Source of the DNA: Candidatus Hecatella orcuttiae
GTDB lineage: Archaea > Thermoproteota > Bathyarchaeia > Hecatellales > Hecatellaceae
NCBI GenBank assembly: GCA_002011035.2
Contig: MTLY02000003.1
Coordinates: forward strand, 480,001-544,000
Direction: 5' to 3'
Length of the DNA stretch: 64,000 nucleotides
Shown here: positions 42,213-63,128 of the stretch, in pieces
Layout of the letters: every line of letters begins with the position of its first letter
Position numbering within the stretch: the first letter of the stretch is position 1
The notes under the pieces: model-generated
The model's database searches: none
What the model saw: only the letters and a program-made list of their open reading frames with translations
What the model was told of the DNA's origin: nothing
Position numbers and translations under genes: made by a program

Positions 42213-42812
42213 CTACCCCGGCGGAGTGTTATAGGCGGTGAGAAACCTTAAGCGGCTCATGTTTTCCCGCAGTTGTCTCTCGCAAACTGGGCAGAAGATA
42301 GGTTTCTTTCTGTCTGTCATTTGGATGCTGTTGGAGAAAAACATCACGCACGTGGGATCGCTACAGTGGGTTAAACCTAAGGTATGCCCCAGCTCGTGGG
42401 TAGCTTCTTTTTTAACCCTAGAAAGGAATAGAGATCCGTCCTCCGCCTTCCCATAAAATTCAGGTCTAAGTCTATGGGTTGAAATGATGGCCAGCCTGCC
42501 CGGGCATTGGGCTTCTCCAAAGATAAAGTTAAGGCCGGGAACGTAGAGGTCGACGGGCACCACGGCCAATATTCGGTGAGCATTCAGATTTTCTGCCACT
42601 TTCCCAACTTGGGCTAGCAGCCGGGAAGAATGGTACTGGCCTCTCGCCCTATTGTAGCTTTTCTCCAAAAGGCTGGGGTCGCCGTGGCTGATTGAACATC
42701 GAGAACCAAAGAAAACTTGACATAGGTGTTCTTCAACCTCCTCTAAAATGCGGGAGATAGTCGCTTCAAAGAGGAGGATGTGAATATGCAGATTAACAGC
42801 CAAGATGCCCAC
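42213..42812 (-). CDS. amzA: Archaemetzincin Zn metalloprotease
   Basis: HELGHTLGLTHC....CVM.FS...D.K...FC..C. Confidence 0.93.
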   Translation of the reverse strand: MGILAVNLHIHILLFEATISRILEEVEEHLCQVFFGSRCSISHGDPSLLEKSYNRARGQYHSSRLLAQVGKVAENLNAHRILAVVPVDLYVPGLNFIFGEAQCPGRLAIISTHRLRPEFYGKAEDGSLFLSRVKKEATHELGHTLGLTHCSDPTCVMFFSNSIQMTDRKKPIFCPVCERQLRENMSRLRFLTAYNTPPG

Positions 42813-42937
42813 ACCGACGTAGCTTATAAAGGGTTTAAACTTCTTCCACTGGAAACCTTAAAACCTATTAAAGGCTGAATGTTAGATAAAGTCTCCGAAA
42901 GGAATAGGGCTGGGAGGCCTAACATCGCTTTCGCTGG

Positions 42938-43605
42938 GTGAAGTTCAGCCGCATGTCGACGCTCTGGGTTATCGGCCTTATATTAGCCTTGGTTATCGCC
43001 CTGTTTCTGGTTAATTTTTACAGGGATCCGGAAAGGATGCCTCCTGCGGACGAGGGAGTAATCGTAGCCCCTGCGGACGGGAGGATTGTCTATGTGAGAG
43101 AGATTGAACGAGGGGAAATTCTGTGGACTCAGAAAGGTGGAAGGAGGATTCCCCTGAAAGAGATATTGTGGGATGAAGACCTTCAGATGTCTTCAGGATA
43201 CATTTTAGGCATATACATGTCTCCTTTCAATGTTCATGTAAACAGAGCGCCCATCGCTGGAAGGGTTGTTAAAGTCTCCAAAAGAGAGGGAAAGCTTCTC
43301 CGCATAGGCCGAGAAGAGTTTGAGTTTCGAAATAGGAGAAACATTCTAGTTCTAGAGCATGAAACAGGCTTCAGGGTGGTAGTCGTTCAAATTGCAGCCT
43401 TCATCGTGGGGAGAATAGACTGCTATGTGGGTGAGGGCGAAACCGTTAACCTCGGCCAGAGAATAGGCAAGTTAAATTTGGCTCCCATGTAGACCTTGTC
43501 GTTCCCCAAGTCTTAAACCTGAAGCTCGCTGTCAAACCAGGGGATAAAGTAAAGGCTGGAGAGGCGATCATTGCGAGGCTCAGTTTAAAGCCGTCTAAAG
43601 GATAA
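42938..43605 (+). pseudogene. psd: Phosphatidyl-/archaetidylserine decarboxylase split by a -1 frameshift near 43471
   Basis: FYRDPER, APADG, HVNRAP in frame 0, which stops at 43492; the catalytic FGS and C-terminus (KFGSHVDLVVP...GDKVKAGEAIIA) are in the -1 frame ending at TAA 43605. Confidence 0.8.
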
Positions 43606-44251
43606 AATCTAGGATCCGCTCCAAGTCATCTGAGCGAATTACCACATCCGCTGCTTCTCCCAGCTCTCTGTCTTTGGGGTTAAAAGCTATCTTCAACCCC
43701 GCCCCCTCAAACATGCTTAGGTCATATTTTGTGTCTCCTACCACCACGAATTTTGACAGCGGCATTCCAAGCTCTAAGGCCAGCTCTCTGACTATCTTAT
43801 TTTTTCCGCCCAGCTCAACTCTGTTAAACTGGTTTCCTGTGATGCGGCCCTCGGCGTCTACTTCAAGAGTGTTGGCGTAGATGCGGTCTATCTTCAGGTC
43901 TCTGCCTACTCTGTAGGCCAGGATGTCCAGCCCGTAGGACACGAGGGCCAAGGTTAATCCCGCCTGACGGAGTTGAGTCGTGGTTTTTTTGGCGTTTTTG
44001 GTCAGGGTGTAGGTTTTGAGGGTTTCATCTATCTCCCTGATGTAGGGTAGTTTCCCGTCTTTCTCCCACAGTTTTATCTCCCTCTTTACCAGCTCTTCGA
44101 AACTCAGCCTGCCTTGAGCGTATTCTTCAATAAATTTTTGCGTCTTTTCCCAGTCTACGTGGAAGTGGCGGTGGAGGATCTCCCAGCATTGCTCCTTTAT
44201 CAGGGTTCCATCCATATCGAAAACGACGGCCTTGTATGCTTTGAAACTCAT
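43595..44251 (-). CDS. HAD-family phosphatase, SerB-like (HAD-IB)
   Basis: FDMDGTL, VS.G, K, VGD...D motifs. Confidence 0.9.
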   Translation of the reverse strand: MSFKAYKAVVFDMDGTLIKEQCWEILHRHFHVDWEKTQKFIEEYAQGRLSFEELVKREIKLWEKDGKLPYIREIDETLKTYTLTKNAKKTTTQLRQAGLTLALVSYGLDILAYRVGRDLKIDRIYANTLEVDAEGRITGNQFNRVELGGKNKIVRELALELGMPLSKFVVVGDTKYDLSMFEGAGLKIAFNPKDRELGEAADVVIRSDDLERILDFIL

Positions 44252-44330
44252 ATTGAAGATATTTTTACCTTTGAGGAGAAAATAAACTTTATATGACTAT
44301 CGGTTTCGTTTTATTTTTTTTGGTTAAGTC

Positions 44331-44365
44331 AATATCTTTAAATATTTGTAATATTTAAGAATATT
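44331..44365. promoter_or_regulatory. Imperfect palindrome with back-to-back TATA-like boxes in a divergent promoter
   Basis: AATATCTTTAAATATT-TGT-AATATTTAAGAATATT (arms match at 14 of 16 positions). Confidence 0.4.
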
Positions 44366-44408
44366 ATGTAGTTTAAAAATATATAAATAAATTTAAAGGT
44401 GAATTAAA

Positions 44409-45836
44409 ATATTTTTTAAAACAGGTCATGAAGTCTTTGACACCATATCCGCCCTCGGCAAAGGCTCCATGATCTTCGTCCTCGATGAGGGACACTACGA
44501 GTCGCTTTTTTTCCTCACCCACCTTCTCTCCAGGTTCGCGGAGACAAAACCCGTCTATCTCCTCACCCACCAGCCGGTTTTCAGCGATTTTAAAGCAATC
44601 AACATAGGCGGCGTGAAGGCGCTTTCAGAACTCAGCATTCGTATAGCGGAGATAAGAAACGAGGTCGGTGAGGGGGTGATAATTCATCACTATCTACCCT
44701 ACATCCTCATCAACTACGAGGAAACCGTGATTCTAAAGCTCTTGGAGCATCTCGCCTCCCAAGTTCAGGGAAGGCCTCTCCTAGAATTCTTAACCCTTCC
44801 CAAGGGGACTTTTCCCACCTTCGAAAAGAAGGCGCAGACACTGCTTCATGGCACAATTATCCTGAGCTATGGGCAAGTCGACGGAAGCTATACACATAAA
44901 TTTTCAATTTTGAAGGCTTGTAAACCTGAGTTCTACGCCAAGGAGTTCCCCTACGTAGTGAGAGGCAACCGTCTGCTCATCAAGTTTGAAGATGAATTCA
45001 CCGACAAGCTCCCCGCATCCTTGGAGGAAAAAACTCGAGCGAAAAGGGTCTATCTGGAAAACAACATCAAAAACCTCAAAATAATCATGCGTAAAGATGC
45101 TATAGAAAAACTGAACCCTGTGGATTATTTTCTCTTAACCCAAACTCACAACATGCGGCTTACTGACGTGAAGCTGCTCTTTTACGACAGGTTCGACGAA
45201 ATTCTGGATAAGCTATCCAGATGGGCTGTTCTAGGCGCCGTTGGCTTTGAAAGAGTTGCGGAACATAAAGAAGATGTTGAAACCATAGGCGGCATAAAAA
45301 AAATCTCTAAACTGGCCTTAAAGCTTCCCTGCTCACTTTCTTCAAGACTGTTAGGCAGGAAGCCGCGTAAAGTTCCTCTTGAAGCTCTTTTGGGGCTTAG
45401 AAAGAGTATCGAAATAGTCCTTAACAACTATTTCCCAAACAGCAGGGAGCCCGCGGAGGTCTTTCAAGCTACTGAGCGGCTGATCCACGAACTTGCAGCC
45501 AGGGTTACCACCATTGAAAGGCTTGAAAAATACGGGGAAACACCTTGGGTTAAACTTGAGTTTAACTACCTACCCAAAGTAACCGCTTTAACTCTACACA
45601 TAGGATTCGGGCTTAAAAGCAAAACCATGAAGAAAACTGATTCCAGCTTTGAAGTTATAGTTGGCGACTGCTTCGAATGCGAAGGAGCTGTTGGCGAAAA
45701 ACCTTTATGCAACATGATTACCGGGACCCTGATAGGAGCCCTCTGCCAAGTCGCCAAAGAGCCGGTATTCGTTGATGAAATAAAATGCAAGGCTTTAGGA
45801 GACCGGGAATGCGTTTTCTTGGTTAGGAAAGCTTGA
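44409..45836 (+). CDS. Inactive KaiC/RecA-fold, possible wHTH, V4R domain fusion protein
   Basis: In-frame upstream KTGHEVFD...LGKGSMIFV resembles the KaiC N-terminus; no Walker A; C-terminal CFEC...LC...G...EIKCKALGD.EC.F is V4R-type; ATA start at 44409 after AGGTGA (first ATG 44469). Confidence 0.75.
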   Translation: MFFKTGHEVFDTISALGKGSMIFVLDEGHYESLFFLTHLLSRFAETKPVYLLTHQPVFSDFKAINIGGVKALSELSIRIAEIRNEVGEGVIIHHYLPYILINYEETVILKLLEHLASQVQGRPLLEFLTLPKGTFPTFEKKAQTLLHGTIILSYGQVDGSYTHKFSILKACKPEFYAKEFPYVVRGNRLLIKFEDEFTDKLPASLEEKTRAKRVYLENNIKNLKIIMRKDAIEKLNPVDYFLLTQTHNMRLTDVKLLFYDRFDEILDKLSRWAVLGAVGFERVAEHKEDVETIGGIKKISKLALKLPCSLSSRLLGRKPRKVPLEALLGLRKSIEIVLNNYFPNSREPAEVFQATERLIHELAARVTTIERLEKYGETPWVKLEFNYLPKVTALTLHIGFGLKSKTMKKTDSSFEVIVGDCFECEGAVGEKPLCNMITGTLIGALCQVAKEPVFVDEIKCKALGDRECVFLVRKA

Positions 45837-45852
45837 TTTCCCTAGCCTGAGG

Positions 45853-47091
45853 TTAATTTATCACAAACTTACCATAGGACCAAAGATAATCGGGGATATC
45901 GGAGCGAAAATTCTCAAACTTGTCAAAAGACTGGAAAACTAAGCGTAGGCTTCGTAGATCTTTCTTTTCTTCCACTTGCTTCCTCAGAAGAAACATCCTC
46001 AGAACTCTCGCACAATAGACGAGAGCTTCCACGTCGATATCTTGATTCAGGTTTTCAGCCTCCCGCATCTGTTCAACAGCACTCAGAAAAACCAGGTTAC
46101 CTAAGTGAATGGCGTCGTCCAAAACTCCCCGTTCCTCCAAGGTCTTTATAACTTTGGCTGCTTTTCCCTGAAGCTCGGAGAGGGAAACCTTACCCGTTTC
46201 CAGCCCAAGCATCATGGCTGAATTGACGATGGAGTCCCTTAAGTCGTCTTTCAGATCGGTTACATCATCCCAGATGATCAACGCCCGGAACAGTAGGTCT
46301 ATGCCCCGGTTGATGCACTCCAGAGACTTCAGCGTAGCGCCGTCCAATCCGCCGGTTGATGCCTCATAAAAACATAGGTCCACATCCACCCAAAGGGTCC
46401 CGGAAGCTTTGGCGGTTATCTTCTTTAAATAGTCTTTAAAGTTTAACCCCGAGAGACTGTAGAGGTTGCTCTTCTGGTAGAAAGACCTGATCTGCGCGTC
46501 TATGAACTCTTTAACATCTGCAACAAAAATCTTAAAGGTCTTCAAGTCTTCAAGCGGAGATGGCAGCCTATGATAGGCCCACCTCGTTATGGCGTAAGCC
46601 GAGTTTTCAGCTCGAGCCAGCCAAAGTTTTCTTCCCTCAATGCTCTCTAAGAAGAAGATAGGCCTGGTTAAGGCTTCTTCATATTTCTGCTGAGATGCTT
46701 CAGCTTGTTCAAAATCATGGAACTGATCGTTGATGTTGTCCAACAGTTTTATCCCGGTCATCATGGCTGTTTTCGAAAAAATTGAGGAATCCACAACATC
46801 GTTCCCTGCGACTCTGTGAAGGATAGGATACGAACTTATAGCCGCCAGAAAACTGGCATAGGCGAGATACTTATCTTTCAGAAGCTTTCTATCCTTCAAA
46901 TCGTCGAAACTCAACACTAAAGGGCCGTCTAATTCCGCAGTCAATTTTGCTTCCAGTTCTTTTTTCACTCGACTGATGCTTTTGTAAACCTTAAAGAAAC
47001 CGATAGAAGGAAATTTTCGCGCCATGGAGGTGAGAATAATCAAGCCGCCGAGATGGTAGAGAGGATTTAACCCCTCTTTGAAAATTTTCAC
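45853..47091 (-). CDS. Class I isoprenoid synthase / terpene synthase-fold protein
   Basis: Predominantly helical pattern; LLDNINDQ (FARM-like), ITAKASG, IWDDVTDLKDD..D.IVNS (SARM-like); GTG start after GGGGTGA. Confidence 0.7.
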   Translation of the reverse strand: MKIFKEGLNPLYHLGGLIILTSMARKFPSIGFFKVYKSISRVKKELEAKLTAELDGPLVLSFDDLKDRKLLKDKYLAYASFLAAISSYPILHRVAGNDVVDSSIFSKTAMMTGIKLLDNINDQFHDFEQAEASQQKYEEALTRPIFFLESIEGRKLWLARAENSAYAITRWAYHRLPSPLEDLKTFKIFVADVKEFIDAQIRSFYQKSNLYSLSGLNFKDYLKKITAKASGTLWVDVDLCFYEASTGGLDGATLKSLECINRGIDLLFRALIIWDDVTDLKDDLRDSIVNSAMMLGLETGKVSLSELQGKAAKVIKTLEERGVLDDAIHLGNLVFLSAVEQMREAENLNQDIDVEALVYCARVLRMFLLRKQVEEKKDLRSLRLVFQSFDKFENFRSDIPDYLWSYGKFVIN

Positions 47092-47340
47092 TAATAAATC
47101 ACCCCATAGCAGGGGTATTCCAACTTTATTGCTGTAAATAACTTAAATTTGGGTCTTTTATTTAACTTTTGTTATTATTTTTAAATAATAAGCCGTTTTT
47201 AAATTTCTTTATTAAAAAAATATTCAAATATGGCTTTTATTTGAAAATAAATCAAATATAACTTAAATTATATTAAAAATAAAAACAGATGCCGTTATAC
47301 AAAAAACAGTCGAATGTAGGAAAAAATCCGCTGCCATTAG

Positions 47341-47856
47341 TCAGTCTTTCAAAATCCGGAACACTTGCACATCAATTTTCATTTGAATGGGTTCAAGTTT
47401 AACGTTCAAAACACTTTCTACGTAACTTTTCATCAAACTGGAAGGTAGAGCTGGAGAAACAATCTGAATGTAGTCCCTGTCCGTAGCCGAAAATTGTCCC
47501 CAGCCAAAGTTGGACATAATCTCCAAAGCGGAATCCCAGTCTTTGGTAGTGTCGGTTTGAAACTGAAACAAAGCGAAAGACTTGATGACTTCCCCCATTT
47601 CCCTACCTAGGTCCCTGTGGTCTTCCTGCTCCACCCGCTCTATCAACAGGTCTAGGGCTTTTTTTGGGAGGAAAACAATTCTAACAGGTCCTATGTCAAA
47701 AAGACCCTTTTGCCATCGGTCTAAAGTGTATTGTCTCCCGAATTTAACGCACATCTCAACGAATTCTTTTAAAGACCGAACTCGCCCCTCTCGCATCAGT
47801 CTTTCGATGTACTCTACGTCTTCCTCTTCTAATTCAACTGATGTGACCCTGCTCAT
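47341..47856 (-). CDS. RHH (CopG-like) plus V4R-like putative one-component regulator
   Basis: VTSVELEEEDVEYIERLMREGRVRSLKEFVEMCV; R.VFLP, LGREMG, NFGWGQF V4R-like pattern. Confidence 0.65.
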   Translation of the reverse strand: MSRVTSVELEEEDVEYIERLMREGRVRSLKEFVEMCVKFGRQYTLDRWQKGLFDIGPVRIVFLPKKALDLLIERVEQEDHRDLGREMGEVIKSFALFQFQTDTTKDWDSALEIMSNFGWGQFSATDRDYIQIVSPALPSSLMKSYVESVLNVKLEPIQMKIDVQVFRILKD

Positions 47857-48048
47857 GAATAAATGCTCCTATTCAAAGTTAATATATAATAATATTTTTA
47901 TTTAATTAATGTATTGTTGCGCATCTTTTATATAAATTTATAATTAAAAAATTATGTTAAACTTAAGGAGCCTATCTCCCTTTTCCCGGAAACACTCCCT
48001 TCCCCCAAAAAATAACGGGACTGCCCGATGCTCGCTGTCTCCTCCACA

Positions 48049-48810
48049 TTAAGGAGTGATAAACAGTTTCTCCTTCGGGAAGACAGTGATCCCTCGCTGG
48101 TCTATTTTATACGGGTGCGGCTGGATGTCGTGGGAAACTCCCCGCATTTTTTCCACATGAATGCTTTTAGCCGTCACATCCTCTCTCCGAATGTTCTGCA
48201 TGACAATAACTCCGTCGGATAAATATTCCTCAAAGATAAACTCCCGCTCTAGCAAGTTGGCTTTCACCTCAGAAATGATGAGGGCGGTGACGCCTAATTC
48301 CGTGAAAGTTTTAAAAATAAGCATGGTAGCCAGCCGCCTCTTAACCAATTCTGGCTCTTGGAAGGTTAACGCGGAAAGGGAGTCAAGGACTACTCTTTTG
48401 GCGCCGACGTCTCTGCAACTGTTTCGAATAACCTCCAACAAGCTTGAAATTTTGAAGGCAGGCATGCTCAGAAATTTCACCGCAGCTTCAATTTCTCTTT
48501 GAGGCATGTAATTAATAATAGAGTAATCCACTATCTTCAACATTCCATCCTTCTCATGCTTTTCAAAGTTTAGATCAAGCTTTGAAAGTTCCCTCTTCAG
48601 GGATGAAACATCCTCTTCCAACGTAATGTAAAGGCCTTTCTCGTTGAACATGGATATCCCGTTGCAGAGATACTGAGCGCTGAGAATAGTCTTCCCAGTT
48701 CCAGGGCCGCCGATGACAAGAATGTTCCGGCCCTGAGGGAGACCCCCTCCCAAAATCTCATCTAACCCTTCAATCCCTGTGGGAATAATGTCCTTCGGAT
48801 GTGAAGTCAT
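48049..48810 (-). CDS. Single-domain KaiC/RAD55-family ATPase
   Basis: TGIEGLD..LGGG, GGPGTGKT, TLEE, VVLDS, EEYLSDGVI, KMRG. Confidence 0.93.
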   Translation of the reverse strand: MTSHPKDIIPTGIEGLDEILGGGLPQGRNILVIGGPGTGKTILSAQYLCNGISMFNEKGLYITLEEDVSSLKRELSKLDLNFEKHEKDGMLKIVDYSIINYMPQREIEAAVKFLSMPAFKISSLLEVIRNSCRDVGAKRVVLDSLSALTFQEPELVKRRLATMLIFKTFTELGVTALIISEVKANLLEREFIFEEYLSDGVIVMQNIRREDVTAKSIHVEKMRGVSHDIQPHPYKIDQRGITVFPKEKLFITP

Positions 48811-52007: not shown

Positions 52008-52930
52008 CTATTTGTTGATAATCTCTTGGTAGAATTTAAGATACATGCCAGTAGCTCTATCCCAAGTTAGGTTCCTTTCGATGTATCCTCTTCCCTCTAA
52101 GGCTTTTTTCTCGCATTTTCATAATTTTTAAAAATCCAACAAGCTTTTTCAGCAAACGCCTCTGCTTTGTAGGGAACATAGTAAGCATACTTACCTACAG
52201 ATTCCCTTATGGCTGGTATATCTGTGGCTATCACCGGTGTCCCGCATGCCAATGCTTCAGCTGAAGCCAGAGAGAACCCCTCAGCATAGGGCGGGCTTGG
52301 AACTAAAATAACATGGCATTTGTTGTAGAAATAGCATAATTGATTATCATCTAAGACCTTATCGTTCAACAAGATAACGCATTCCGGTAATAATTCAGCA
52401 TTTTTGGGATAAGACTAATTTTGTAGGATGCTTTTCTTCCCACATAGCCGATAGTCGGTTTTTTCGGTTTCTTTATTCCAAGCGGTTTAAATTTACTGCA
52501 ATCAACCCCGTTAGGGACAACTCTAGCCTTGTCAGTCATCTTCGGCATCACAACTCCCAGGGCCTCTATAATAGCCTTTGTCGGGGTTGTTATTCCTATA
52601 GCTTTTTTTTACAGCTAATTTTTGAAGATATCCTCTGAAGTGATACATTCGCATAGGAGCGATGTCATGGAGGGTTAGGATGTAATTCTTTCTAGCGATG
52701 ATCGGCGGCATTGCTGCCCTAAAATTAGCCGCGTGAATGACATCATAGTCTTTAAGTTTCATTGATGCTCTTACCATCCAAAGAAAAGTTCCAGTCTATG
52801 GTTTTCCGTTATGGACGACTTCAACGTTAACATGTTTTCTCAGCCTTTCCACTATCTCTATACTAAATCTGTTAACGCCTCCTATCGGTTTTTCAGGCGT
52901 ATAATGGAGAGTTAACCACAGGACTTTCAT
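52008..52930 (-). pseudogene. GT4 glycosyltransferase pseudogene (multiple frameshifts/stops)
   Basis: Fragments MKVLWLT..PIGG, DVIHA..TLHD, VVPNGVD..F.P, YVGR, EGFSL...EALACGTPVIATD, LTWDRA..Y in different frames. Confidence 0.85.
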
Positions 52931-53172: not shown

Positions 53173-53514
53173 CTATGGTATTGTTTCTCCCCCGGCATCA
53201 TAAAGCGGATTAGAAACAGTTTTGCGTCCCGCTAGTCTCGGCAAAAGAAAATAGTAAGGTATGGCTATTAAATTAGGGACGACTATTGTTATTATGGTTA
53301 TATATCTTCTAGAAATTCTTGTAAGCTCTCTCAACAAGGTATGAGGTTTATCACTATGTTCAAAAGTATGGAATAGGTAAACTTGTTCAAAACATTTTTC
53401 TTGAAATGGTAAATAATGCATGTCTGCCCCCACATCTGGATTGACGATAGGATCTATATCAACGCCAATATCCTTCCGCTTATTCCTGCCGCAGCCTACA
53501 TCGAGAGTTACCAT
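53173..53514 (-). CDS. Class I SAM methyltransferase, short and probably truncated
   Basis: LDVGCG, D.HYLPF, FEH...L.E..R. Confidence 0.6.
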   Translation of the reverse strand: MVTLDVGCGRNKRKDIGVDIDPIVNPDVGADMHYLPFQEKCFEQVYLFHTFEHSDKPHTLLRELTRISRRYITIITIVVPNLIAIPYYFLLPRLAGRKTVSNPLYDAGGETIP

Positions 53515-58618: not shown

Positions 58619-59347
58619 ATGGCTGAACTCATAAAGACGGGTGTGGAGGGTTTAGACGATGTCCTCGGGGGAGGTCTACCAGATAAGAGCCTAGTCCTCG
58701 TCCTCGGCGAGACTGGCTCTCATTATGATACCTTCGTTCGTCAGATTTTCTACAACCACGTTCTTGAGGGAGGGAAGGTCGCCTATTACATTGTTGAAAC
58801 TTCCAGCTCCGATGTCTTAGAGGATATGTCCGTCTACAATTGGGACCTTACCGAGTTTATGGAGAAAGGATCGTGGGTCTTTGTCAACGCACTCTCTCCA
58901 GACTTACAGGAGCTTTCAGAGCTATCTCCCAGTAAAACCCCTGAAGTTAAGCTTCTCCTGAGTCAGACCTTAACAACACTGAAAAGGGATTTTTTAGCTA
59001 GGGTTAAGGAAGGAAGGTGGACAGCGTTGCATATCTCCCATCTCATCTTACGCTACGACTTCAGAGATGTGATGGATACGGTGCTGTACATGCGGATGGT
59101 GGTCCGTCACCATTCAGGCTTACATTTTATACTGCTGCCTAGGGGGGTTCATGAGGAGCAGAAGATTCAGGCTCTCAAACATTTAGCGGATGGAGTATTC
59201 GAATTCGGTATGCAGGAAAGAGGCAGAGAATATGAAGGAGTGTTTACCATCACTAAGTTGAGGAAAGTTCTCCATAAAACGAAAACTCACTCCTTTATGA
59301 TTTCAAACAGGGGACTCTACATTGAGAGAGCGGAGCGGATAGTCTAG
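58619..59347 (+). CDS. KaiC/FlaH-like protein with degenerate Walker A
   Basis: KTGVEGLDDVLGGGLP, GETGSHYDT (no GKT), LADGVFEF, KLR. Confidence 0.85.
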   Translation: MAELIKTGVEGLDDVLGGGLPDKSLVLVLGETGSHYDTFVRQIFYNHVLEGGKVAYYIVETSSSDVLEDMSVYNWDLTEFMEKGSWVFVNALSPDLQELSELSPSKTPEVKLLLSQTLTTLKRDFLARVKEGRWTALHISHLILRYDFRDVMDTVLYMRMVVRHHSGLHFILLPRGVHEEQKIQALKHLADGVFEFGMQERGREYEGVFTITKLRKVLHKTKTHSFMISNRGLYIERAERIV

Positions 59348-59646
59348 TCCTATTTGACATTGCAAAGATATCTCTTTAATGCGAAGGCGAATTTTTTGAA
59401 GCCCTTTTTTATACATCACAGGAGAAAAAAGCTGACTTACTCGGCGTCGAAAGGACATTTTGATGGAGAAAAGGTTAAGTACTGTGGAAGAGACTTGAGA
59501 ACTCAAAGAAAGGGAATAATCCTTTCCATTCAAATTGAAAACAGCTTTAATCCTTTAGGCGCCCAAGACAAAGAGGCGTCTGTTAAGGTTCCGGCGATGG
59601 GTGGAAACATAGATCCTGGGAGCTGTCTTCAGATGGATGTTCAAGC

Positions 59647-61248
59647 ATGGGTTGGCAACTCTGGTTTTCAAGAGGGGGTTGCTTGGTTGTGAAACTGATA
59701 GGGCGGGGTAAACCGAAGTCTGAAACCGGAAAGACGGGAGCTAAACCGGAGATTCTCACACCAAAACTTCCAGAGAAAATTATAGACATTCATCCTGTGC
59801 TACCCCCGTATGCTCATGTGGCAATTACCCGTGATGAGATGGGACGGCATCGGTATGTTGTCATAGAGCCAGTCCTCAACGAGTCTGAGTCCCGGATCAT
59901 GGAGAGATTGAGAGAAATACTTGTTGAGGAATTGGAAGTTGCCACAGAAGAGCTGGGCAGTCACGAGAGAAGGGAAGCCTTCCTCAAAGAAAAAATTCAA
60001 AGTATTATTAAAAGGTACAAGATTAAACTCAGCCCGGAAGCCGTGGATAAACTCACCTACTATTTAATTCGAGATTTCGTTTATCTCAGCAAGATCGAGC
60101 CTCTCATGCGGGATCACATGATAGAAGACATTTCTTGCGATGGACCCAAGATTCCCATCTACGTATGGCATAGAGAATACGAGTCCATGCCAACCAACGT
60201 GGTCTTTGAGTCGGCTGAAGAGCTTGACAGGTTTGTTGTGAGATTATCCTACTTGGCCGGACGTCATATTTCCGTCGCTCAACCTATTGTTGACGGTTCG
60301 CTGCCGGATGGTAGCAGGCTTAATGCAACCTTCGGCTCGGAGGTTACAAAAAAAGGAAGCAGTTTCACCATCCGCAAGTTCAGAGCAGACCCGTTGACCA
60401 TCACGGATCTCATCGCCTTCAACACCATCTCCGCGGAAATCGGAGCCTATTTCTGGTTTCTAGTCGAGAACAAGGCCTCTATTTTAGTCTCTGGAGGTGT
60501 GGCTTCCGGTAAGACGACGTTCCTCAACTGCCTTGCCATGTTCATCCGACCGGAGCTTAAGATAGTCACCATTGAAGACACAGCGGAGCTTAACATTCCC
60601 CAAGAAAACCTAATTCAGGCTCTTACCCGTTCAGGTTTCGGTCCTGCGGGGGAGACGGCTGAGATCAGCCTCTTCGACCTGTTGAAGAATGCGATGAGGC
60701 AAAGACCCGACTACATCATAGTAGGGGAGATCCGTGGAGAGGAAGCTTACACGCTTTTCCAAGCCGTGACCACCGGCCATGGGGGTTTAAGTAGCATACA
60801 TGGAGATTCCGTTCAATCCGTCATTTACCGTTTAGAATCTGAGCCTATGAAGATTCCGAGGAATTTCATCGCCAGCTTGAATGCTGTAACAATTTTAGGC
60901 AAGGTTCAAGTTGGTGAACGGTCTGTCAGACGTATGTTAAACTGCACTGAGTTGGTGGGCATAGACCCTTCAACCAAGCATCTTCTAACCAACCTAATCT
61001 ACGAGTGGAAACCAGACGATGACTCCTTTGCCTTCGAAGGAAGAAGCAACTTTATCAGTAAAGTCATGGCCGCCAAAAACATGACGGAAGCTGATATTAG
61101 GGAGGATCTGAAAATGAGAACCCAAATCCTCAAATGGATGGTGGCCAGCAACATCAGACGCTATATAGATGTAGCTCAAGTTATCAGGCAGTTCTACGTC
61201 GACCCTCAACGTCTTTATGCAAAAGCCAGATACGGTCTTGAGGCATGA
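59647..61248 (+). CDS. Type IV pilus/archaellum-type assembly ATPase (PilB/ArlI)
   Basis: IEDISCDG, FTIRKF, GGVASGKTT, IEDTAE, RQRPDYIIVGEIRG, TGHGG.SS.H; start may be GTG near 59689. Confidence 0.95.
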   Translation: MGWQLWFSRGGCLVVKLIGRGKPKSETGKTGAKPEILTPKLPEKIIDIHPVLPPYAHVAITRDEMGRHRYVVIEPVLNESESRIMERLREILVEELEVATEELGSHERREAFLKEKIQSIIKRYKIKLSPEAVDKLTYYLIRDFVYLSKIEPLMRDHMIEDISCDGPKIPIYVWHREYESMPTNVVFESAEELDRFVVRLSYLAGRHISVAQPIVDGSLPDGSRLNATFGSEVTKKGSSFTIRKFRADPLTITDLIAFNTISAEIGAYFWFLVENKASILVSGGVASGKTTFLNCLAMFIRPELKIVTIEDTAELNIPQENLIQALTRSGFGPAGETAEISLFDLLKNAMRQRPDYIIVGEIRGEEAYTLFQAVTTGHGGLSSIHGDSVQSVIYRLESEPMKIPRNFIASLNAVTILGKVQVGERSVRRMLNCTELVGIDPSTKHLLTNLIYEWKPDDDSFAFEGRSNFISKVMAAKNMTEADIREDLKMRTQILKWMVASNIRRYIDVAQVIRQFYVDPQRLYAKARYGLEA

Positions 61249-62213
61249 GTCCTTCTAGGAAAGAAGGCAAGTCTGAAAAGGTTAAGCAAGTCAAAGGCAA
61301 AGGTGGAATGTCCGCGGGAGTTTTGGAGAAACCTTGGTATGCTTCTTACGGTTTTTTGGCATCAAAGATCGATCCTCTGCTCCCCCACCTTAAAGGGTTG
61401 AGGAGTAAGTTCATCAAAGCCGGTCTTCCGGTGGATTTCAGGGCCTATGTGAGTTTTCTCATTTTCGCAACCATCATGTCTTTTGCGGTAACCTTGGGGA
61501 TTACTTTGAGCATAAATATTTTCTTCCTTAAAACCCAAATAATCTATTTTCTCGGTGTTTCGTTTCCTTTTCTATCGCTCCCTCTCATAATAGCCGGCTT
61601 CTCGGCGGCGACAACGTTTCTTTCGATCTATCTCTACCCCAGCTTTGTGGTGGGTGTTGAGAAGAGAAAGATTGAGAATTCTCTCCTCTACGCTGTAAGC
61701 TACATGTCCATCTTAGCCACAGCCGGCTTGTCGCCTGAAAGGATCTTTAGAGCTCTCGCAGCCAAACCTGAAATTCGGGGAATCTGCACCCAAGCCAGGT
61801 TGATCATCAGAGACGTAGACATTTTTGGGGTTGATTTTCTTTCAGCTTTGCACAGTGCCATTGAGCGCGCCCCCTCCAAGCTGTACGCGGATGTTCTTGA
61901 AGGGTTTGTAGCCCTCATTTATTCAGGAGGAGATCTGTCTGAGTATCTGAGGACTAGGACGGATGAGCTGACAAAGCGCCAAGCTGACATCATCCGCATG
62001 TTCGTTGGGAGGCTTGGGATGCTGGCCGAGTCCGCTGTAGCTATCATAGCTGTCTTTCCTCTGATATTCATCGTCAGCTTCAGCACAGCTTCCCTTCTCC
62101 CAGGGGGGTTTCTAACTCAGCCGATCTTTGTATACAGTGTGGTTTACTTGATGCTGCCCTTTATCTCTATTCTGTTCTTAGCGATTCTGAGAACGGGAGC
62201 TCCTCAGGTGTAA
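61245..62213 (+). CDS. Type II secretion F-domain platform protein (PilC/TadB-like)
   Basis: KAGL....AY, LYP, G.D..SAL.....APS; multiple TMs; ATGA overlap with the ATPase. Confidence 0.88.
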   Translation: MSPSRKEGKSEKVKQVKGKGGMSAGVLEKPWYASYGFLASKIDPLLPHLKGLRSKFIKAGLPVDFRAYVSFLIFATIMSFAVTLGITLSINIFFLKTQIIYFLGVSFPFLSLPLIIAGFSAATTFLSIYLYPSFVVGVEKRKIENSLLYAVSYMSILATAGLSPERIFRALAAKPEIRGICTQARLIIRDVDIFGVDFLSALHSAIERAPSKLYADVLEGFVALIYSGGDLSEYLRTRTDELTKRQADIIRMFVGRLGMLAESAVAIIAVFPLIFIVSFSTASLLPGGFLTQPIFVYSVVYLMLPFISILFLAILRTGAPQV

Positions 62214-62219
62214 TCTGTC

Positions 62220-63128
62220 GTGATCGAGAAAAGGGATATAAAAATCGGCTGGGCAGTCTCCTGCGGCGTAGGGTTCGCCATAATCTTTCTTGCTTTGCTG
62301 GGCCCCTATTTCTTCGGGCTTCCGGAATTTTTAGGTCTCTTCAAACTGCTGGGAATACCGTATTTTCTTCCGTCATATCTCGGTGTTCTGTGGGTAGATA
62401 AACTCATGGTTATCTCCGTAGTCATAATGATTCTCCCTCCAGGGGTTCTCCACCATCTCCATTGGCGGTGGAAGAAGGCGGTGGACAGAAATGTGCCTAA
62501 CTTTCTCAGGGATATAGCGAACGCTCAATATACAGGGATGACCTTCATTCGAGCTCTGGAATATACGGCGAAAAGAGACTACGGCCCCCTTTCTGAGCAT
62601 CTCAGGTGGGCTTTGGCTAAGATATCTTGGGGCGTACCCTATGAGGAGGCTCTGCAAGCTATGGCTGAGCGTTTGGACACGCCTCTGGTGCGGAGGGCTG
62701 TGATGCTCATCATCGAATCCGGGCGTACCGGGGGAGATATCTTAGAGATCATGGAGTCGATAGCGAAGCACATTCGAAACGTTGAAGACTTGGAGAGGGA
62801 GCGGTTGACCAGCATGAGGCCTAACATCTACATAATCTACCTCGGCTTCGCAGTCATGCTGCTGACCGTGGTGTTAGTTTACACCACTTTCATCCTCCGG
62901 CTGCTCACTGGGGAGCTGGCGGGAAGCATCGGGGCCATACGGGCTCAGGAGTCCCCTCTCACCCCGTTGGAATACCTTAGGATATACTTCCATACAGCAG
63001 TGGTAGTGGCTTTTTTCGGAGGCCTCATGGCCGGGCAGATGGGGGAGGGCGGCTTAACCAACGGGTTGAAGCACTCTGTCATCATGTTGATCGCAACTCT
63101 CCTCACTTTCACTTTCTTCATGGCTTAA
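62220..63128 (+). CDS. Type II secretion F-domain platform protein (TadC-like)
   Basis: PNFLRDIA...GM...AL, YGPL, ISWG.P..EAL, GG, GL.AG.M.EG...GLKH. Confidence 0.9.
   Translation: MIEKRDIKIGWAVSCGVGFAIIFLALLGPYFFGLPEFLGLFKLLGIPYFLPSYLGVLWVDKLMVISVVIMILPPGVLHHLHWRWKKAVDRNVPNFLRDIANAQYTGMTFIRALEYTAKRDYGPLSEHLRWALAKISWGVPYEEALQAMAERLDTPLVRRAVMLIIESGRTGGDILEIMESIAKHIRNVEDLERERLTSMRPNIYIIYLGFAVMLLTVVLVYTTFILRLLTGELAGSIGAIRAQESPLTPLEYLRIYFHTAVVVAFFGGLMAGQMGEGGLTNGLKHSVIMLIATLLTFTFFMA

Follow-up and report, generated by a model that had tools for sequence, protein, structure and literature searches.

Linkage of a predicted isoprenoid-synthase-fold gene with a pseudo-KaiC-V4R gene in Thermoproteota: a candidate isoprenoid pathway module with its own sensor

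In the ComQ-ComX-ComP quorum-sensing system of Bacillus, an enzyme of the isoprenoid-synthase fold is encoded beside the receptor of its product. The archaeal KaiC-like ATPases are numerous, and to our knowledge almost none of them has a known input or output. They were reportedly put forward by Makarova, Galperin and Koonin in 2017 (in mBio) as signal transduction hubs equipped with sensor domains. We describe here a locus of the archaeon Candidatus Hecatella orcuttiae in which the gene of a 412-amino-acid (aa) protein with a predicted isoprenoid-synthase fold (X412) lies next to the gene of a P-loop-less KaiC-fold protein fused to a V4R domain (pseudo-KaiC-V4R), with an intact KaiC-like ATPase gene close by. 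The locus was analysed within a stretch of 64,000 nucleotides, referred to as the window (contig MTLY02000003.1, positions 480,001 to 544,000 of the forward strand), of an archaeal genome of 1.75 Mb in three contigs (97% complete; G000 in our numbering, where G stands for genomes, L for loci and f for genome families, f1 being the window's own). The new result is the linkage of the X412 gene with the dead-KaiC-V4R gene, which was found across distant lineages.

The X412 locus would resemble ComQ-ComX-ComP in also pairing a synthase-fold enzyme with a candidate receptor gene, but in the inspected loci we saw neither a ComX-like peptide gene nor a histidine kinase or an exporter. It resembles the KaiC hubs in combining an active single-domain KaiC with a P-loop-less KaiC-fold protein that carries a small-molecule-binding domain. 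Here, however, the two KaiC-type proteins are tied to one enzyme family and to isoprenoid-tailoring genes, which provides a concrete candidate input or output. In comparison with PoxR/DmpR, MsvR and Bet3/TRAPPC3, the V4R domain is attached to a dead KaiC and not to an AAA+ or winged helix-turn-helix output, and it contains an extra CxxC.

As for the enzyme, the class IB large-terpene synthases (BalTS, B. subtilis YtpB; DUF2600, PF10776) differ from X412, which gives no PF10776 match and has K115 in place of the first Asp; the X412 family is also archaeal, not bacterial, and linked to KaiC and V4R genes. In the published passages on them, classes IB to IF are described as mainly bacterial, with some homologs in fungi, protists and plants. 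The trans-isoprenyl diphosphate synthases (PF00348), which make geranylgeranyl diphosphate (GGPP), heptaprenyl or octaprenyl diphosphate, differ from X412 in that its first motif, DNxxD, is not followed by RRG, and that it is about 60-90 residues longer. The features of the locus are as follows.

43595..44251, minus strand: HAD-IB (phosphoserine-phosphatase-like) phosphatase, 218 aa (PF12710, TIGR01488), divergent from the pseudo-KaiC-V4R gene
44252..44402, no strand: AT-rich divergent spacer between the HAD and pseudo-KaiC-V4R genes, GC 0.31 at 44200-44499, putative archaeal promoter region
44403..45836, plus strand: pseudo-KaiC-V4R, 455 aa from the ATG at 44469, with a probable start upstream of it; KaiC-fold domain, helical middle region and V4R domain
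45853..47091, minus strand: X412, 412 aa, predicted class I isoprenoid synthase alpha-fold, motifs (K)LLDNIND and DDVTDLxDD; founding member of an unnamed archaeal family
47092..47340, no strand: very AT-rich spacer upstream of X412, GC 0.26 at 47050-47349, putative promoter region
47341..47856, minus strand: 171-aa protein with a possible RHH N-terminus (RHH_1 sub-threshold) and a C-terminal domain with no family match
48049..48810, minus strand: intact single-domain KaiC-like ATPase, 253 aa (PF06745)

The coordinates of the five genes given in a first-pass annotation, which was made from the letters of the window, agree exactly with the list of open reading frames (ORFs). Its proposed folds held for four of the products (HAD, dead KaiC-V4R, synthase and KaiC) and failed for the 171-aa protein. 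The pseudo-KaiC-V4R and X412 genes are convergent, with 16 bp between them. The AT-rich spacers are likewise real, since the GC values listed above and that of 0.34 at 47650-47949 compare with 0.43-0.51 inside the genes. A promoter and terminator scan of the spacers gave nothing above shuffled sequences, the scan models being of the bacterial type and unsuited to archaea.

Linkage of X412 and pseudo-KaiC-V4R genes

The first-pass annotation had named beforehand the linkage of X412 homologs with V4R and KaiC genes in other genomes as the observation on which its proposal depended, and we have found that linkage. Within 17 loci from species-representative genomes inspected by BLASTP, the pseudo-KaiC-V4R gene adjoins X412 in all 13 that have at least 1.4 kb of flank; in the four remaining loci (L003, L007, L009 and L018) the sequence stops no more than about 260 bp from X412. 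We also sampled 301 Bathyarchaeia genomes evenly, counting the partner at E<=1e-30, and found X412 in 30 and pseudo-KaiC-V4R in 26 of them. Both genes were present in 25 of these genomes, X412 only in five (G003, G069, G078, G148 and G202), pseudo-KaiC-V4R only in one (G139) and neither in 270. For 21 of the 25 genomes that have both, the two genes are on a single contig and at most about 2.6 kb apart; of the remaining four genomes, at least three have one of the two at a contig end.

In a sample of the whole phylum, X412 was detected in 28 of 401 Thermoproteota genomes. It occurs in three families outside Bathyarchaeia (5/32 genomes of f41, 9/17 of f43 and 7/24 of f48), in all of which the pair is adjacent, one of them being of the Caldarchaeum type. 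The pseudo-KaiC-V4R gene adjoins X412 on the same strand in all five f41 and f48 genomes checked, and the pair is adjacent in all seven loci from Caldarchaeum, HR01 and Nitrososphaerota, here called Caldarchaeum-type. The outer neighbours depend on the lineage: Obg GTPase and TRM5 genes in f16, CitG and presenilin-like protease genes in the Caldarchaeum type and a pilus locus in f1. As the orientation and all outer neighbours change between lineages, the pairing is not explained by a frozen ancestral block. Full-text literature searches, with supplements and the 2017 KaiC-hub paper outside their coverage, returned no description of an X412-V4R-KaiC linkage.

Two f16 loci, L092 (in G202) and L098 (in G078), have X412 in its usual place together with geranylgeranyl-reductase-like (GGR-like) and/or HAD-IA genes and are possible natural loss variants. 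The X412 match in G078 contains a TAG.

The X412 protein

The synthase fold proposed for X412 is supported by modelling. When the AlphaFold2 (AF2) model (pLDDT 93.2) was compared with known structures by VIA-align, all 50 of the top 50 chains were prenyl or terpene synthases, with an entry named 'Tolypothrichol' as the best match, and the ESM-Atlas model (pTM 0.85) had the same kinds of fold neighbours. Clusters of tetraprenyl-beta-curcumene synthase accounted for six of the 30 language-model neighbours in ESM Atlas. The X412 family profile was also aligned by hhalign with ten canonical polyprenyl synthases from genomes of relatives (those that passed a motif and length filter out of 28 places), which gave a probability of 50.7% and an E value of 1.6e-4; the alignment places LDNIND on the first Asp-rich motif of the canonical synthases and YDDVTD on the second. 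In the AF2 model the protein is all-alpha, with both acidic motifs at helix ends, as in the class I isoprenoid synthase alpha-fold superfamily: D118-N-I-N-D122 ends helix 97-124 and D275-D-V-T-D279 ends helix 251-278, followed by D283. No membrane segment was predicted, which indicates a soluble protein.

The motifs DNIND (118-122) and DDVTD (275-279), already recognised in the first-pass annotation, are invariant or nearly so across 44 homologs. The residues that are invariant or conserved in at least 90% of these sequences are K115, D118, N119, N121 and D122 within (K)LLDNIND, Y274, D275, D276, D279 and D283 within YDDVTDLxxD, further E162, N163, D192, Q200 and K228, and a C-terminal basic cluster of R365, R370 and K371. 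Passages of PMC5939612 place the essential Asp residues of class IB enzymes in DYLDNLxD and DY(F,L,W)IDxxED. Judged by pattern, the X412 motifs seem to resemble these two as well, with five of the six Asp residues matched (D118, D122, D275, D279 and D283) and the invariant K115 at the first position, in a register taken from motif inspection and not from structural superposition.

No model of Pfam or NCBIfam matched X412. For PF00348 there was no hit at E<=0.1 and no match above 27 bits; the first motif is DNxxD and not DDxx(xx)D, and the second, DDVTD, is present. PF10776 likewise gave nothing in X412 at E<=0.1 or above 25 bits, nor anywhere in the genome when all six frames were searched at E<=10, a search in which the B. 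subtilis control gave a positive signal. Searches of PDB sequences with the single sequence or with profiles of 14 and 44 sequences yielded nothing meaningful, and a profile search with alignment A2 in a word-indexed database returned the same family alone. The family is small: the word-indexed search gave 14 clusters, and a search of 1.84 billion proteins gave 63 representative clusters at E<=0.001. X412 is thus predicted to be an enzyme of the class I isoprenoid-diphosphate type that belongs to neither PF00348 nor PF10776.

The suggestion that X412 is something other than an ordinary GGPP synthase also stands, since three canonical PF00348 genes are present elsewhere in the window's genome; assignment as the GGPP synthase was ruled out on this ground. 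At least one canonical PF00348 gene was found in all 13 genomes searched from the window's family and class. X412 can be considered accessory, because just 30/301 and 28/401 of the sampled genomes contain it.

Sensor, ATPase and neighbouring genes

The first-pass annotation described the 455-aa protein as a dead KaiC fold fused to V4R, and modelling supports this. The AF2 model (pLDDT 86.6) has two clear domains: a KaiC/FlaH-type (KaiC/RecA) fold at the N-terminus, which lacks Walker A (about 44403-44996), and, after a helical middle region (residues 185-300), a V4R/Bet3-fold domain (about 45366-45833, protein residues about 300-455). In the homologs, VLVLDETFxES stands where KaiC has GxPGTGKT, which precludes the usual ATP binding. 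V4R (PF02830) matches residues 395-453 at 5.6e-12, above 31 bits, and nothing before them was recognisable by sequence. The structural matches of residues 300-455 were Bet3/TRAPPC3 (2cfh_A, score 13.5), a Thorarchaeota TRAPPC3 (13.4), the phenol sensors PoxR (12.9) and DmpR (12.8) and the V4R protein MJ1460 (12.1), so that the neighbours include the phenol-bound PoxR/DmpR sensors and palmitate-bound TRAPPC3.

Translation of this gene probably begins some 60 nt before the ATG at 44469, near 44403-44409. The 22 in-frame codons that precede this ATG encode KTGHEVFDTISALGKGS, the N-terminus conserved among the homologs. Between the preceding stop and this ATG the frame contains none of the codons ATG, GTG and TTG, and either ATT at 44403 or ATA at 44409, both non-canonical, is probably used.

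Architectures that combine KaiC and V4R also seem to occur in other clusters, which are to be taken as leads. In the window's genome but outside the window, a second V4R gene adjoins another KaiC-like gene (G000:C3:296616-297520; L076/L080), and the V4R-KaiC pairing thus recurs in this genome. The KaiC-like match concerned has one in-frame TAA.

The gene at 48049..48810 encodes an intact KaiC, as had been annotated: PF06745 matches it at 2.1e-61 (207.7 bits against a cut-off of 26.6) and GGPGTGKT is present. Residues G34, G37, G39, K40 and T41 of Walker A are invariant in 11 linked KaiCs. The 253-aa protein is not a two-domain circadian KaiC, as it has a single domain (NF006799, 175 against a cut-off of 408). 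The genome has eight KaiC-family matches. A quick FastTree tree, drawn without printed supports, unites the 11 linked KaiCs in a single clade, from which five other KaiC paralogs of the genome are separate. In 13 of the 17 loci the fetched flanks contain a KaiC gene. G002 has it next to X412, G001 at a distance of about 3.7 kb and f41 next to pseudo-KaiC-V4R.

The HAD assignment was confirmed as well (PF12710 at 9.7e-18; 98.8 bits for the HAD-IB model TIGR01488, whose cut-off is 45), and the window's protein stays below the cut-offs of two further models (TIGR01491, 138.2 against 151.9; serB, 111.6 against 144.15). HAD-IB orthologs occupy the same divergent position in G001 (53% identity) and G002 (51% identity), both of the window's family. 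In two f48 genomes the genes flanking the pair are HAD-IB-like, and in f16, f14 and f41 it is flanked by a HAD-IA gene of the PpaX/phosphoglycolate-phosphatase-like type. A HAD is thus a recurrent neighbour, directly flanking X412 or its partner in 15 of the 28 assessable loci, a count that omits ten further loci that end too early. The 13 loci with no directly flanking HAD are seven of the Caldarchaeum type, four from f18 genomes and those of G256 and G039 (with a HAD 3 kb away). The occurrence of two HAD subfamilies in the same place argues for a function, whereas the constant ProRS gene next to the f16 HAD means that some of the signal may be plain synteny among relatives. In a BLASTP search with the window's own HAD, none of the 17 loci gave a match; the conclusion that the HAD is unlinked was dropped once later loci had shown HADs of the same or the other subfamily in place. 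Just upstream of the window's HAD gene, at 42213-43492, there are a phosphatidylserine-decarboxylase-family gene (PF02666, 3.3e-39) and a gene for an M54 archaemetzincin-like peptidase; a lipid head-group enzyme beside a phosphoserine-phosphatase-like HAD offers an alternative context for the latter.

Several isoprenoid-related genes recur between or beside the pair. A GGR-like flavoprotein gene was found there in eight genomes (G169, locus L008; G094, G032, G202, G090, G277, G271 and G148) and the gene of a divergent UbiA-family prenyltransferase in nine loci, identified by Pfam in L005, L010, L011, L012 and L014, by BLASTP in L013 and L016 and solely through an ORF of matching size and position in L015 and L017. 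The Caldarchaeum-type loci add a UbiE/MenG-like methyltransferase (in three loci checked with Pfam) and a TrmB-type regulator. In these loci the pseudo-KaiC-V4R gene overlaps or abuts the UbiA and UbiE-like genes on one strand, and the KaiC gene abuts X412 on the strand opposite to the UbiA side, with a gap of about 33 bp. In the f18 loci L088, L095 and L096, a polytopic membrane protein of 228-229 aa with no Pfam match is encoded between X412 and its partner, in the place taken by the UbiA or GGR-like gene in other lineages. An APH-like phosphotransferase gene flanks the pseudo-KaiC-V4R gene in L088 and L096.

The linked UbiA was compared with NF009523, a DGGGP-synthase-like model. In all five genomes tested, another UbiA scored 226-262 bits and the linked one at most 110 bits. 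Its assignment as the housekeeping DGGGP synthase was therefore ruled out for G301-G305, each of which has a better-scoring UbiA elsewhere. The locus of the window's genome contains neither a UbiA nor a GGR-like gene. This genome does have, 158 kb away, a UbiA gene (G000:C3:367061-367918; L024) that is an ortholog of the Bathyarchaeial linked type (support 100/99). Among the four UbiA paralogs of the genome, L024 alone resembles DGGGP synthase, yet its NF009523 score is no more than 87 bits. Its grouping is with the UbiA linked to X412 in another Bathyarchaeon and not with the DGGGP-synthase-like genes of 226-262 bits.

The 171-aa protein, annotated as RHH-V4R-like, gave no V4R signal, and in an hhalign comparison with the V4R-bearing family the probability was 0.13%, which does not agree with a role as a V4R receptor. 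RHH_1 (PF01402) is sub-threshold in 12 of 20 family members (best E 0.014), and the window's protein reaches 12 bits (E 0.21) where 20.5 bits are required. No Pfam or NCBIfam family matched it at E<=0.1, and no PDB sequence did. It has 23 homologs, whose named sources are Bathyarchaeia/Hecatellales, and one paralog elsewhere in the window's genome. The contigs that carry its nearest homologs have lengths (3719 and 7898 bp) that also occur among the contigs with X412 homologs. Its gene occurs in one of the 17 loci by BLASTP (L005) and in one of five further genomes (G039), L005 and G039 being the same contig, and it therefore cannot be counted among the conserved parts of the locus. L007 and L008 have small ORFs in the corresponding place that are not homologous to it. 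The protein is a lineage-restricted extra outside the conserved core and not a second receptor. At best it looks like a weak RHH protein, possibly with an RHH DNA-binding N-terminus.

A glycosylation cluster at 48.9-57.8 kb and a pilus-like locus at 58.6-63.1 kb are both real features of the window:

58619-63128, plus strand: type IV pilus/archaellum-like locus that encodes a KaiC-like protein of its own (PF06745, 6e-24) and a T2SSE ATPase and has T2SSF domains in two separate genes

The same set of pilus genes lies directly beside the X412 gene of G001. Within the glycosylation cluster, three short consecutive ORFs of 91, 61 and 81 aa in different frames were seen at 52097-52777 (minus strand), the first of them corresponding to the C-terminal half of a GT1 glycosyltransferase; they look like a frameshifted, broken glycosyltransferase gene. 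A methyltransferase fragment of 113 aa at 53173-53514 may be a further remnant.

Proposed function and alternative explanations

Our preferred reading, to which we give about an even chance, is that the locus represents a specialised isoprenoid (prenyl-lipid) pathway module with its own V4R/KaiC sensor, conserved in archaea. X412 would be a soluble enzyme binding a prenyl diphosphate via Mg2+ held by D118/D122 and D275/D279/D283. Its product would be tailored, depending on the lineage, by the HAD phosphatase, the GGR-like flavoprotein, the divergent UbiA together with the UbiE-like methyltransferase, or the small membrane protein. Given how frequently a phosphatase accompanies the pair, the product may retain a phosphate ester until a later step removes it, and a retained phosphate would fit a reaction of the synthase/transferase type slightly better than a cyclase that expels diphosphate. 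Tailoring by a reductase, prenyltransferase or methyltransferase suggests a membrane lipid or a quinone-like compound. The ligand of the V4R pocket would be a hydrophobic isoprenoid, be it the product or one of its precursors, and the pocket is the obvious candidate for an isoprenoid reader since its solved relatives hold phenols or a palmitoyl chain. The dead KaiC subunit, together with the dedicated active KaiC, could then convert ligand occupancy into an ATP-dependent switch which tunes or hands over the flux through X412. The interpretation given in the first-pass annotation is partly supported.

Several observations weigh against this proposal. X412 fails the hidden Markov models of both PF00348 and PF10776, and its first motif is DNxxD instead of DDxxD. 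The fold is silent on the reaction, as chain-elongating synthases and cyclases tie in Z. The homology of the pseudo-KaiC domain to KaiC is weak by sequence (hhalign probability 3.7-7%; PF06745 matches one of 12 pseudo-KaiC-V4R members, E 0.26) and was settled by structure. Five of the 30 X412-bearing Bathyarchaeia genomes have no partner at E<=1e-30, and G202 and G078, both of f16, have an intact-looking X412 locus with no pseudo-KaiC-V4R gene, which shows that X412 can exist alone. The KaiC gene lies outside the flanks in four of the 17 loci and is remote in f48, where the best KaiC match (331-336 bits) is 165-179 kb away or on another contig. HADs are abundant in general, and the f16 HAD always adjoins ProRS. 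Related genomes are not independent, and the linkage counts therefore overstate the support. Finally, the CxxC of the V4R domain, special to pseudo-KaiC-V4R among the V4R proteins compared, could signal metal or redox sensing instead of lipid binding.

MsvR-type V4R regulators are reported to sense redox state or metals, and the Cys-rich V4R domain might in the same way sense thiol redox or a metal and, via KaiC, adjust the synthesis of a quinone-like or protective isoprenoid. The invariance of C401, C404, C414, C440 and C448 in 12 homologs, the best NCBIfam match of the V4R part (MsvR, 5.2e-8, below the cut-off) and the presence of UbiA and the UbiE/MenG-like methyltransferase, typical enzymes of quinone pathways, in Caldarchaeum-type loci are all consistent with such a sensor. 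However, three of the five Cys residues are general V4R features shared with other V4R proteins of the genome, the closest solved relatives are sensors of organic ligands (PoxR and DmpR) and the lipid-binding Bet3, and MenA-like enzymes are already encoded elsewhere in the same genomes. We regard redox or metal sensing as unlikely.

A carrier or assembly function would agree with the same genes. In bacteriochlorophyll synthesis, a carrier role has been proposed for BchJ, which is encoded beside BchG and BchP. By analogy, the V4R pocket would hold a greasy substrate or product and pass it between X412 and membrane enzymes, the KaiC pair would use ATP to drive its loading or release, and the HAD would reset phospho-KaiC instead of acting on the lipid. 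The gene arrangement of the Caldarchaeum-type loci, in which pseudo-KaiC-V4R abuts the UbiA and UbiE-like genes and KaiC abuts X412, as well as the solubility of X412 next to polytopic UbiA and 228-aa proteins, fits a handover of this kind. Cyanobacterial KaiC autophosphorylates on Ser/Thr, and the window's HAD is phosphoserine-phosphatase-like. The HAD of the other families, however, is of the PpaX/phosphoglycolate-phosphatase-like HAD-IA type, a better fit to small phosphoesters than to phosphoproteins, and the window's locus has no UbiA or GGR-like gene. The probability of this explanation is, in our estimate, low as well.

The first-pass annotation favoured a circuit similar to quorum sensing, in which X412 and the HAD make a released prenol or prenylated signal, and the V4R/KaiC pair and the RHH factor reprogramme surface genes. 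The joint encoding of a synthase and a sensor of hydrophobic ligands speaks for this, as do the recurring phosphatase, which would suit a product that holds a phosphate until its release as an alcohol, and the nearby pilus locus in the window's own family. A role in quorum sensing or secreted signalling was nevertheless not borne out: none of the inspected loci showed an exporter, a signal peptide precursor or a second receptor, and the 171-aa RHH candidate is not conserved and has no V4R signal. The frequent GGR-like, UbiA, UbiE-like and polytopic membrane proteins resemble lipid-tailoring partners and suggest a membrane-resident lipid. Control of the downstream glycosylation and pilus genes is unsupported too, since these neighbours do not recur outside f1. 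We consider the circuit quite improbable. Equally doubtful is the narrower version in which a free isoprenoid alcohol (farnesol-like, geranylgeraniol-like, reduced or an irregular prenol) is made by X412 and the HAD in some Bathyarchaeia and Caldarchaeum-type archaea and sensed by V4R on the dead KaiC, which gates the live KaiC. If true, it would be the first archaeal circuit of the autoinducer type with both synthase and receptor identified, and would give the first defined ligand for an archaeal KaiC hub.

That X412 is merely a very divergent housekeeping prenyl diphosphate synthase with inherited, uncoupled neighbours would agree with canonical trans-prenyl synthases being among its best structural matches, with the hhalign alignment of the motifs and with the close kinship of many counted genomes, but it is highly improbable in view of the canonical PF00348 genes of the genomes searched, the scarcity of X412 in both samples and a pairing that outlasts orientation changes and complete flank turnover across two classes.

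The locus, a candidate module for a specialised isoprenoid pathway with its own sensor, offers a testable pairing of a single enzyme family with a single ligand-binding domain and a dedicated clade of KaiC, conserved in distant Thermoproteota. X412 adds an archaeal family to the few non-canonical class I isoprenoid synthases that are missed by sequence models. If the product is a membrane lipid, the system would bear on membrane tuning in uncultured archaea of sediments and hot springs; if it is a diffusible prenol, it would represent a new kind of archaeal signalling.

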